From an uncultured Selenomonadaceae bacterium (GTDB lineage Bacteria > Bacillota > Negativicutes > Selenomonadales > Selenomonadaceae), in assembly GCA_905236665.1 (NCBI GenBank), contig CAJONF010000263.1:1-31958 (forward strand): 31,958 nt of DNA, given 5' to 3'. Within the stretch, counting starts at the first letter, position 1. Each line of letters starts with the position of its first letter. The notes under the pieces were generated by a model that had not been told where the DNA came from, searched no databases, and saw only the letters and a program-made list of their open reading frames with translations. A program made the position numbers and the translations under genes. This document shows, piece after piece, positions 190 to 1,723 of the stretch.

Positions 190-1179
190 TCAAAGCGCGT
201 TCTTTATACGATAAAAAACATTGCTGTTTACATAATCGCACGTGACGCCGATAGCCGAACAAATCTCCTTGGCATTTGATGAGCCGTGGCTTATCACACA
301 GCAACCGTTGACGCCCAAAAGCGGCGCACCGCCATTCTCGGAAACGTCCAGACGCTTTGACATATTCCTAAAAGTTTCGGCAATGAGTTTCCTGCCCAAA
401 AGTTTTGCGCCGCCGTTTGCAGTCAATTCTTCCGTCAACAGTTGCATTATCGTCAAGGCAAGCCCTTCACCAAATTTTAAAACGACATTGCCAACAAAGC
501 CGTCACAAACTACCACGTCAAATTTTCCGCGGGGAATATCGCGCCCTTCAGCATTGCCCGCAAAATTTATCGTCTGCAAAGTTTTTAACAGTTTATAAGT
601 TTCCTTGGCTTGCTCATTACCTTTAGTTTCTTCCTCGCCGATATTTAGCAGAGCGACGGAAGGATTTTTTATTTTCAAGACGTGCTCGGCATAAAGCGAA
701 CCCATTATCCCGCTTTGAATTAAATGTTCGGGTTTACTGTCGACATTCGCGCCGCTATCCAGTAAAAGAGTAATGCCGCGTGGCGTAGGAATTGGCGTAG
801 CTATAGCCGGTCTGCCAATGCCGTGAATTCTTTTCAAGATAAGTTGAGCCGCCGCAACCGCCGCACCTGTCGAACCAGCAGAAAGTACAGCGTCGCACTC
901 GCTGTCCTTAACCATTTTTGTCGCCACGACTATTGACGAATCTTTTTTATTACGCACGGCGTCGGCGGGATGTTCGCCCATTTCTATAACTTCGCTGGCA
1001 TGGCGAATCGTTATCGGGAAAATTTTTCCGCACGTTTCAGCCTCCAACTCTTCAGAAATTTTTTTCTCATCGCCGACCAAAATAATTTCGCACGGATATT
1101 TTTGAACAGCCAAAACCGCGCCTTTGATAATTTCCGCCGGAGCTTTGTCACCGCCCATGGCGTCGACTGCTATTTTCAC
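190..1179 (-). CDS. plsX: Phosphate acyltransferase PlsX
   Basis: MKIAVDAMGGD start, GRPAI, LLDSGAN, VVCDGFVGN and GAPLLGVNG motifs. GTG start with GGAGG SD. Confidence 0.97.
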   Translation of the reverse strand: MKIAVDAMGGDKAPAEIIKGAVLAVQKYPCEIILVGDEKKISEELEAETCGKIFPITIRHASEVIEMGEHPADAVRNKKDSSIVVATKMVKDSECDAVLSAGSTGAAVAAAQLILKRIHGIGRPAIATPIPTPRGITLLLDSGANVDSKPEHLIQSGIMGSLYAEHVLKIKNPSVALLNIGEEETKGNEQAKETYKLLKTLQTINFAGNAEGRDIPRGKFDVVVCDGFVGNVVLKFGEGLALTIMQLLTEELTANGGAKLLGRKLIAETFRNMSKRLDVSENGGAPLLGVNGCCVISHGSSNAKEICSAIGVTCDYVNSNVFYRIKNAL

Positions 1180-1233: not shown

Positions 1234-1290
1234 TGCCTGCCCAAATTGTTTCCGTATCATCAAGCCGTTTCATTGACACTGCCCCCTACA

Positions 1291-1423
1291 TGAGGGCTTC
1301 TGATTCCTGAGTGAACTACTCCCGCTTATAAGGAGCTTCCTGAATCAACGAGGTTGCGCTTATGCGTCTTATTTCCTCTCATACAGGCTTTACTTTCCGC
1401 AGTCCCTGCGGTAGAGTCGAAAC
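1291..1423 (-). ncRNA. TnpB-type omegaRNA (reRNA) scaffold with putative guide
   Basis: ACCGCAGGGACTGCGGAAAGTAAAGCCTGT translates as TAGTAESKAC, resembling a TnpB C-terminal tail that overlaps the omegaRNA. It continues to GAAGCTCC..GGGAGTAGTTCAC. The putative guide is TCAGGAATCAGAAGCCCTCA (1310-1291). Confidence 0.6.
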
Positions 1424-1429
1424 ATTTTC

Positions 1430-1457
1430 GTTATATCCGAGATGAAAGAACTGTCAA
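1430..1457 (-). promoter_or_regulatory. Element-internal sigma70 promoter pointing into the omegaRNA and toward plsX
   Basis: TTGACA (1457-1452), 16-nt spacer, TATAAC (1435-1430). Confidence 0.55.
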
Positions 1458-1546
1458 GCTCGATTCATCTCGCCGCCTATAAAGGCTGGGAATTTTCGCG
1501 CAAGGTGGTTAAAACGGCTTGATAGACCACCAATCAAAAACATATT

Positions 1547-1723
1547 TTATGCTGTTTCAATAACTTCGCGCCCGTCATAGTAACCGCATTCCAGGCATAC
1601 ATGATGTGGGAGTTTAGGTTCATGGCATCTCGGACATTTTACGTAGTTCGGAGCTTCTAACTTCCAATTTGCACGCCGCCTGTCGCGTCTGCTTTTGCTC
1701 AATTTCCTTTTAGGTGCCGCCAA
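1547..1723 (-). CDS. rpmF: 50S ribosomal protein L32, Zn-ribbon form (58 aa; not in the ORF track)
   Basis: TTG start with AAGGAGGT SD. MAAPKRKLSKSRRDRRRANWKLEAPNYVKCPRCHEPKLPHHVCLECGYYDGREVIETA. Confidence 0.97.
   Translation of the reverse strand: MAAPKRKLSKSRRDRRRANWKLEAPNYVKCPRCHEPKLPHHVCLECGYYDGREVIETA

Follow-up and report, generated by a model that had tools for sequence, protein, structure and literature searches.

Tandem IS200/IS605-type right ends between rpmF and plsX: a gene-less mini-element probably nested in the tail of a second insertion sequence

Introduction

The guide of an IS200/IS605 omegaRNA is whatever DNA adjoins the right end of the element. Insertion sequences (IS) also occur nested, one IS being interrupted by another at the preferred target of the invader. 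At the locus described here two IS right ends follow one another directly, such that the guide position of a putative omegaRNA holds the right end of another IS. The question is whether such a guide arises from ordinary nesting or serves to direct one transposon into copies of another. A sequence-only reading of the locus proposed the latter, namely that a TTGAT-specific element had homed into the omegaRNA of a relative, and that its guide, together with TnpB supplied in trans, cut the uninvaded copies of the host IS. The letters that this reading quoted for the tandem ends are all present where it placed them. The window, i.e. the whole stretch of DNA analyzed, comprises 31,958 nucleotides from an uncultured Selenomonadaceae bacterium (contig CAJONF010000263.1), the genome of which is a MAG of 308 contigs and 78% complete.

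Results

The insertion between rpmF and plsX

The minus-strand gene order is a yceD-like gene, rpmF, a 367-nt spacer and plsX, and the tandem right ends are located in the spacer. The features that define the site are:

190..1179, minus strand: plsX, the next gene of the rpmF-plsX operon (Pfam FA_synthesis, E 1.2e-108).
1547..1723, minus strand: rpmF, encoding ribosomal protein L32 (Pfam Ribosomal_L32p, E 6.5e-29; taken from the ORF list).
1560..1563, minus strand: TTAT in rpmF, the target motif of family B; in 19 relatives this motif is directly followed by the sequence that here comes after 1273.
1509..1559, minus strand: left piece of 51 nt, which starts with a synonymous copy of the rpmF end, TGAAACAGCATAA, ends with TTTAA and is like no IS family scaffold.
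1512..1523, minus strand: inverted-repeat arm ATCAAGCCGTTT, a perfect inverted copy of 1259-1270 (12 nt, 100% complementary).
1259..1272, minus strand: original end of rpmF, now displaced, TGAAACGGCTTGAT, which is the ortholog of the stop region of this gene in the relatives and holds the second inverted-repeat arm.

The empty site is represented by 19 orthologous loci of the genus, which read ..GAAGT(C/T)AT^TGAAACGGCTTGA(G/T)GATA.. without any insert (^ marks the joint; in shorter form, rpmF ..GT(C/T)AT^TGAAACGG) and in which rpmF ends E-V-I-E-T-A-stop. The window contains 287 extra bases (1559-1273) between TTAT (1563-1560) and TGAAACGG (from 1272). These correspond to the 51-nt left piece (1559-1509), a mini-element referred to as mini-A (1508-1311) and a 38-nt tail referred to as RE2 (1310-1273). 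The final rpmF codons, E-T-A-stop, lie within the first bases of the inserted block, and synteny with the rpmF 3' end of the 19 relatives restarts exactly at the end of RE2, position 1273.

A Logan contig from sequencing run X1 spans the junction of the two right ends (1229-1361) with one letter different, and thus the junction is not an artefact of the window contig alone; X1 may be the source sample of the genome, so that this contig is supporting rather than independent. No contig in the sequencing runs covers the left junction (1434-1526), X1 being the only run that holds part of the locus. Chimeric assembly was considered and judged unlikely, since the mini-A copy of the window is only ~ 80–85% identical to the other MAG copies, all of which break contigs. 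A pre-insertion form of the window strain was also considered for joints that leave out about 294-300 nt; these proved to be the empty sites of diverged relatives.

Mini-A, a gene-less element of family A

The first right end belongs to an element with the following parts:

1311..1508, minus strand: mini-A, a gene-less IS200/IS605 element (PATE type) of 198 nt, comprising a left end, a promoter-like site, an omegaRNA scaffold and the right end RE1.
1509..1513, minus strand: TTTAA, the target or transposon-adjacent motif (TAM) of family A, directly 5' of the left end of mini-A.
1469..1490, minus strand: left-end subterminal hairpin with the core GCC-TTTATA-GGC (family consensus CCCGCC-TCTATA-GGCGG), as read from the sequence.
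1430..1457, minus strand: promoter-like TTGACA-16-TATAAC in front of the scaffold, read in the same way.
1311..1415, minus strand: putative omegaRNA scaffold of family A, from the consensus fold of 14 copies, with weak Rfam likeness to HPnc0580 and Ref70.
1336..1348, minus strand: TTGAT-TCAGGAAG, a conserved scaffold strand predicted to pair with CCUGUAU (about 1381-1388; columns 41-47 with 88-94).
1311..1340, minus strand: RE1, consisting of a degenerate right-end hairpin and, behind it, the terminal motif ..GTTCAC.

RE1 reads GGAAGCTCC..GGGAGTAGTTCAC and ends at 1311. Subterminal imperfect hairpins are present at both ends of mini-A, the right one being shortened in that its 5' arm falls short of the family consensus CTCCCGCC/GGCGGGAG. 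Searching the spacer against the MAG and its relatives identified 8 more family-A right ends in the former and 15 in the latter. All 23 stop at (A/C)(G/C)TTCAC, beyond which the flanks are unrelated. Position 1311 is therefore a true right end, because at least 23 other family-A copies stop alike and then diverge. In this respect the sequence-only reading is borne out; moreover, the 23 other ends stop at a single terminus, and the tandem pair is not the usual end of the family. Most of the MAG copies are found at contig ends, as the repeat breaks the assembly.

At the other end, TTTAA^CC occurs at 10 independent family-A left flanks with nothing conserved further upstream, and none of the 10 has TTGAT directly 5' of the left end. 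Mini-A thus has flush ends and lies directly 3' of a short conserved motif, as IS200/IS605 elements do (10 left ends and at least 23 right ends). The proposed specificity for TTGAT does not hold, since the corresponding place in a further family, C (see below), has TTTAA and the TTGAT of the scaffold is one strand of a stem. An empty site for one of the relatives' family-A copies (L055), the flanks of which are not syntenic, was not found among 76 genus genomes.

Full-length family-A copies in relatives (L053, L054, L060-L062 and L065) encode TnpB proteins, the C-termini of which are reached 120-165 nt before the shared right end. The product ends ..HDRDxNAAINIKNEG.., and the Pfam OrfB_IS605 and TNB domains were detected in it. 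The scaffold of full-length copies thus overlaps both the 3' end of tnpB and the right end, which identifies it as the omegaRNA region of a TnpB. The contigs of the 78% complete MAG contain neither a family-A tnpB nor a match to the Y1 tnpA (PF01797), which makes present-day activity doubtful. The sole TnpB of the MAG belongs to family B and is 42% identical to the family-A TnpB over the C-terminal half, and a Y1 TnpA scores above the cut-off in 10 of the 76 genus genomes.

A sigma-70-like promoter is kept directly upstream of the scaffold in mini-A copies (1430-1457 of the window, L055 and contig C238). A consensus promoter scan did not flag the site of the window, TTGACA-16-TATAAC, the last base of which is C; other mini-A copies have better promoter-like matches at the equivalent place, for example TTGACT-17-TATAAT in L055. 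With a promoter of their own, mini-A copies could have their RNA made without a tnpB message.

The omegaRNA scaffold and its internal TTGAT

The consensus fold of 14 scaffold copies contains 24 pairs, 5 of which exhibit compensatory changes, for example C-G to U-A in 6 of the 14 sequences. Rfam yielded nothing in the window at gathering thresholds; with E-value thresholds only the weak likenesses to HPnc0580 and Ref70 appeared, neither reaching the gathering score. The single-sequence fold of the putative RNA has a z of -0.16, and single-sequence folds of this RNA and of the whole spacer gave no signal beyond the long-range stem of the 12-nt inverted repeat.

The TTGAT that the sequence-only reading took for a target occupies 1348-1344, with TCAGGAAG (1343-1336) behind it. 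The stretch TTGATTCAGG is conserved in family A and forms, in the consensus fold, the 3' strand of a stem with the upstream CCUGUAU. On this conservation and modeled pairing, the TTGAT of the scaffold is RNA structure and not a TAM followed by a target, and should not be read as a TAM.

Transcription of the omegaRNA at this locus is a prediction, with the 5' end expected just downstream of 1430 and the 3' end, within the guide, near 1295. RNA contigs of run X18 cover the conserved family-A scaffold alone and are not assignable to the window locus, these RNA data being contig-level and derived from other organisms. In the guide position (1295-1310), CAGG and GAAUCA are complementary to CCUG and UGAUUC of the scaffold (1342-1347 and 1381-1388), and the minimum-free-energy fold pairs them. 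According to this model, pairing with the IS-derived guide could come at the expense of the stem within the scaffold.

The 38-nt tail and families B and C

The second right end and the guide position that it occupies are:

1273..1310, minus strand: RE2, an orphan tail of 38 nt from a second IS200/IS605 family, with the hairpin GCCCTC/GGGGGC and terminal AGTGTCAA.
1295..1310, minus strand: guide position of mini-A, 16 nt TCAGGAATCAGAAGCC, placed relative to RE1.

Three co-resident IS200/IS605 families of this gut-associated genus are distinguished by their terminal motifs and by target motifs derived from their flanks:

Family A: target TTTAA, terminal TTCAC.
Family B: target TTAT, terminal GTCAA.
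Family C: target TTTAC, terminal GTCAC.

RE2 reads TCAGGAATCAGAAG-CCCTC/GGGGG-CAGTGTCAA from 1310 to 1273. The pattern AGGAAT..GGGG..AGTGTCA(A/C) matches 13 times in the MAG, at 12 family-B right ends and at the window, and 0 times in five shuffled genomes, so that RE2 is more than a chance resemblance. The family-B tnpB on contig C271, the only tnpB of the MAG, has the right end ..AGGAATCC-hairpin-GGGGAGTGTCAA. About a dozen further family-B ends stop at the identical motif, most of them in 75-nt mini-elements, and the family-B left ends, CATACGCGCCGTAAGA.., are preceded by T(T)TAT. Family C is present in many genus genomes with tails of the form ..TTTAA^T(C/T)(T/A)AAAATCAGAAGCCC(T/C)-hairpin-GGGAGTGTCAC; TTTAA is conserved at this spot in 12 of the 14 tails listed, and the left ends are preceded by TTTAC.

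Alignment of the 38-nt tail yields a score of 17 with family C (31 of 43 columns), 13 with family B and 7.5 with RE1. With family C, RE2 has AATCAGAAGCCC in common, and with family B the terminal GTCAA. The better fit to C, the terminus of B and the poorer fit to RE1 together identify RE2 as a C/B-like tail and not a copy of RE1. The 38 nt are accordingly a second right end, flush with the boundary at 1273, and what occupies the guide position is indeed the right end of another IS, closest to families C and B; on both points the sequence-only reading stands. When mini-A is taken out of the window sequence TTTAA^mini-A^TCAGGAATCAGAAGCCCTC..CAGTGTCAA, the remainder is identical to two family C copies (L130 and L132) at 16 of 19 positions right after TTTAA. 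The first base of the tail corresponds to the one directly behind the conserved TTTAA of family C, and with the left end of mini-A placed at CC, TTTAA+TCAGGAATCAGAAGCCCTC fits the family C TTTAA+TCTAAAATCAGAAGCCCTC gap-free.

No intact member of the subfamily to which the tail belongs was found in the MAG, the 76 genus genomes or the public collections searched, and exact-word scans for RE2 and for the left piece gave 0 matches in genome_contigs and metagenome_contigs.

Three side observations concern these families. The 75-nt family-B mini-element is present in at least 7 copies (MAG contigs C284, C294, C34, C205, C69, C272 and C210), always after T(T)TAT; in all copies 17 nt of left end are fused to 58 nt of right end at the same deletion joint, and it has apparently spread as a unit despite the missing left-end hairpin. 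Full-length family C elements (L147 748-1926 and L149 741-1955) contain an open frame of ~ 390–405 amino acids ending ..SCGYTAHRDIHGARNIL.., the product of which looks TnpB-like from its sequence. The genus as a whole has at least four or five IS200/IS605-type families with very unlike scaffolds, a near-identical right-end hairpin and a GAGTGTCA(A/C) terminus (seen in L096-L115, L117 and L127-L137), which recalls the single TnpA of Geobacillus that serves several ISGst families.

Origin of the tandem right ends

We favor, with a probability of roughly 0.7, the explanation that mini-A is nested at a TTTAA in the tail of a C/B-like IS, and that the locus is the joint of two unrelated IS200/IS605-type insertions. 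From the boundaries of both ends, the target motifs of the three families, the kinship of the tail, the empty site of the relatives and the uniqueness of the arrangement, all of which are demonstrated, we infer the following order of events. A C/B-like host element would have inserted at the TTAT of rpmF; RE2 is flush after the empty-site TTAT, as expected had the host element itself inserted there. Mini-A would then have entered 3' of a TTTAA within the omegaRNA/right-end region of this host. That it entered a C/B-like element at its own motif is indicated by the tail beginning right after the family C TTTAA and by the gap-free fit of the joined flanks. The recognizable remnant of the host would be its last 38 nt (1310-1273), family-C-like with the terminal motif of family B. 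The nesting may have taken place at rpmF, in which case the left part of the host has since disappeared or been rearranged, or at another site before the nested pair reached this locus. The proposal that the element entered at a place homologous to the scaffold's TTGAT^TCAGGAA is thus half retained: the entry point is homologous, whereas the target was not TTGAT, the left flanks having TTTAA in 10 of 10 cases.

The nested arrangement draws on documented properties of such elements. PATE elements that lack genes but keep an omegaRNA are known, a single TnpA can act on several IS families with like ends, TnpA and TnpB share the TAM, and the donor joint is the natural target (PMC10055086); TnpBs with TTTAA and TTAT TAMs are on record (PMC12908284). 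After excision of mini-A by a cognate TnpA, a family-A TnpB carrying the RNA of this copy would have its normal donor-joint target in TTTAA^TCAGGAATC...

An unlikely alternative is that the unit LE_A..RE1..RE2 (236 nt) formed elsewhere, moved as one via RE2 and inserted 3' of the TTTAA at this locus. TnpA would in that case have used RE2, the RE1 hairpin being degenerate, so that RE2 would be the functional terminus and the true guide would run from 1272. The shortened 5' arm of RE1 beside the 6-bp stem of RE2 agrees with such a composite, as does the DNA to the left of mini-A, which has no similarity to a host IS; a 12-bp hairpin with TTTAA partly in the loop would result from joining the flanks, ..ATCAAGCCGTTTTAA^TGAAACGGCTTGAT.., and the likeness of the A, B and C hairpins makes cross-recognition by one TnpA plausible (PMC10055086). 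However, neither the 236-nt unit nor any A end followed by a tail has a second copy in the MAG or the 76 genus genomes. Family-A right ends with short hairpins are multi-copy and hence apparently mobile, so that RE1 need not be dead, and the flush position of RE2 after the empty-site TTAT is that of an in-place insertion of a TTAT-type element. The composite also leaves the 51-nt piece unexplained. Either way, the arrangement looks like an ordinary one-off insertion, nested or composite, of known kinds of element.

The guide and its possible targets

As the guide is the DNA after the right end, mini-A has TCAGGAATCAGAAGCC by accident of position, as an ordinary flank. The homing proposed in the sequence-only reading would give this guide a function, and several facts speak for it: the guide is truly IS-derived, mini-A entered at the homologous counterpart of the scaffold's TTGAT^TCAGGAA, TnpB cuts any vacant homologous site (PMC10055086), and the TTTAA in 12 of the 14 listed family C tails could serve as a recurrent landing pad. 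Homing nevertheless requires further copies of the host, in which TTTAA is followed by TCAGGAATCAG.., and none was found. The MAG has no other site with up to 2 mismatches to the guide, no near match preceded by TTTAA and no family-A TnpB. Among the 76 genus genomes the tail pattern has only two near matches, both family C tails with mismatches to the guide at positions 2, 4 and 5 behind TTTAA. TTTAA plus the guide has no second copy in the MAG or in these genomes, and nowhere else among the latter is an A end followed by another tail. The search for IS copies with the guide behind its cognate TAM was thus negative as far as the data reach.

Exact TAM-plus-guide scans of two public collections returned one match in a Burkholderiales MAG and one in a metagenome contig. 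Both are chance matches, with neither a hairpin nor a terminal motif nor any other IS feature.

With no other TTTAA-plus-guide site and no second tandem end, homing lacks a detectable target. Considering also that the family-A motif is TTTAA and that the TTGAT of the scaffold is a conserved RNA stem strand, we regard the homing of a TTGAT-specific element from IS copy to IS copy as very improbable. A variant in which family-A mini-elements use the family-C-like TTTAA as a landing pad, the nested guide matches all uninvaded copies of the host subfamily, a family-A TnpB cuts these so that recombination copies the invader into them, and the locus is the relic of a host subfamily now extinct, strains belief to much the same degree; if true, one transposon would exert a gene drive on another by means of its guide RNA. 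Transposon-on-transposon homing would be the weightier result, and the present data give it no target. Finally, the idea that RE2 is a local slippage duplication of RE1 or a chance look-alike, which is suggested by the TCAGGAA opening both modules and by the 13-nt direct repeat GTT(C/G)A(C/T)TCAGGAA linking them, can be all but dismissed, as the tail fits families C and B better than RE1, shares AATCAGAAGCCC with C and GTCAA with B, follows an end pattern absent from shuffled genomes and ends at the insertion boundary.

Discussion

Relation to known systems

Under the preferred reading, nested insertion of mini-A in a C/B-like tail, the closest parallel is provided by the ISGst PATEs of Geobacillus stearothermophilus (PMC10055086). 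Both they and mini-A are gene-less with left and right subterminal hairpins, lie 3' of a short AT-rich motif without target duplication, have an omegaRNA scaffold that abuts the right end, need TnpA and TnpB in trans, and share their host with several like-ended IS families. Unlike the ISGst PATEs, mini-A lies inside the right-end remnant of another family, so that its guide is IS sequence, and it has a promoter-like site of its own directly upstream of the scaffold. ISDra2 of Deinococcus radiodurans (TAM TTGAT) has the same general architecture, with a guide supplied by the sequence just beyond the right end and a scaffold overlapping both this end and the 3' terminus of tnpB. In contrast, the target of family A is TTTAA, and the TTGAT in its scaffold is an RNA stem strand. 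The motifs of families A and B equal those of ISAam1-type (TAM TTTAA) and ISDge10-type (TAM TTAT) TnpBs, respectively (PMC12908284), a likeness by motif alone, as deduced from insertion flanks. The locus differs from nested IS in general in that the host is reduced to 38 nt and its left side is a rearranged copy of the end of the neighboring gene.

The locus offers a worked example of how the guide of an omegaRNA becomes transposon sequence through ordinary nested insertion. Compact mini-elements that combine a promoter with an omegaRNA are candidates for use with the TnpBs of relatives.

The repeated rpmF end

The 51-nt left piece (1559-1509) is the part of the insert that nesting accounts for least. 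Its alignment with family C scaffolds scores 21, no better than the shuffle mean of 20.9, it has no resemblance by eye to family B, and no copy was found elsewhere in the MAG, the relatives or the public collections. Since it is unlike the scaffolds of C or B, no left part of the host element is demonstrable at the locus. The copy TGAAACAGCATAA that now ends rpmF differs from the displaced end TGAAACGGCTTGA at 3 positions, each of them synonymous, so that the C-terminus of L32 is unaltered.

Neither the direct nor the inverted copy of the rpmF end is expected from a simple nested insertion. Possible causes are an aberrant repair or template switch that copied the neighboring rpmF end while the left part of the host was lost, recombination with a foreign rpmF allele through a one-sided anchor, or the arrival of mini-A together with its tail, as a composite, in the loop of a pre-existing hairpin. 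Within what would be the match to the host element's own guide (TTAT^TGAAACGGCTTGAT), the inverted arm stops at nt 14, and the published TnpB cut on the non-target strand is 15-16 nt from the TAM (PMC12908284). This proximity is a coincidence and not evidence.

The 12-bp inverted repeat brackets mini-A and RE2 and accounts for the long stem in the fold of the spacer. In total, the rpmF 3' end is present three times, as the synonymous direct copy that now ends the gene, as the 12-nt inverted copy and as the displaced original. This triple end may be a repair or template-switch scar beside an IS, and as such may merit attention.
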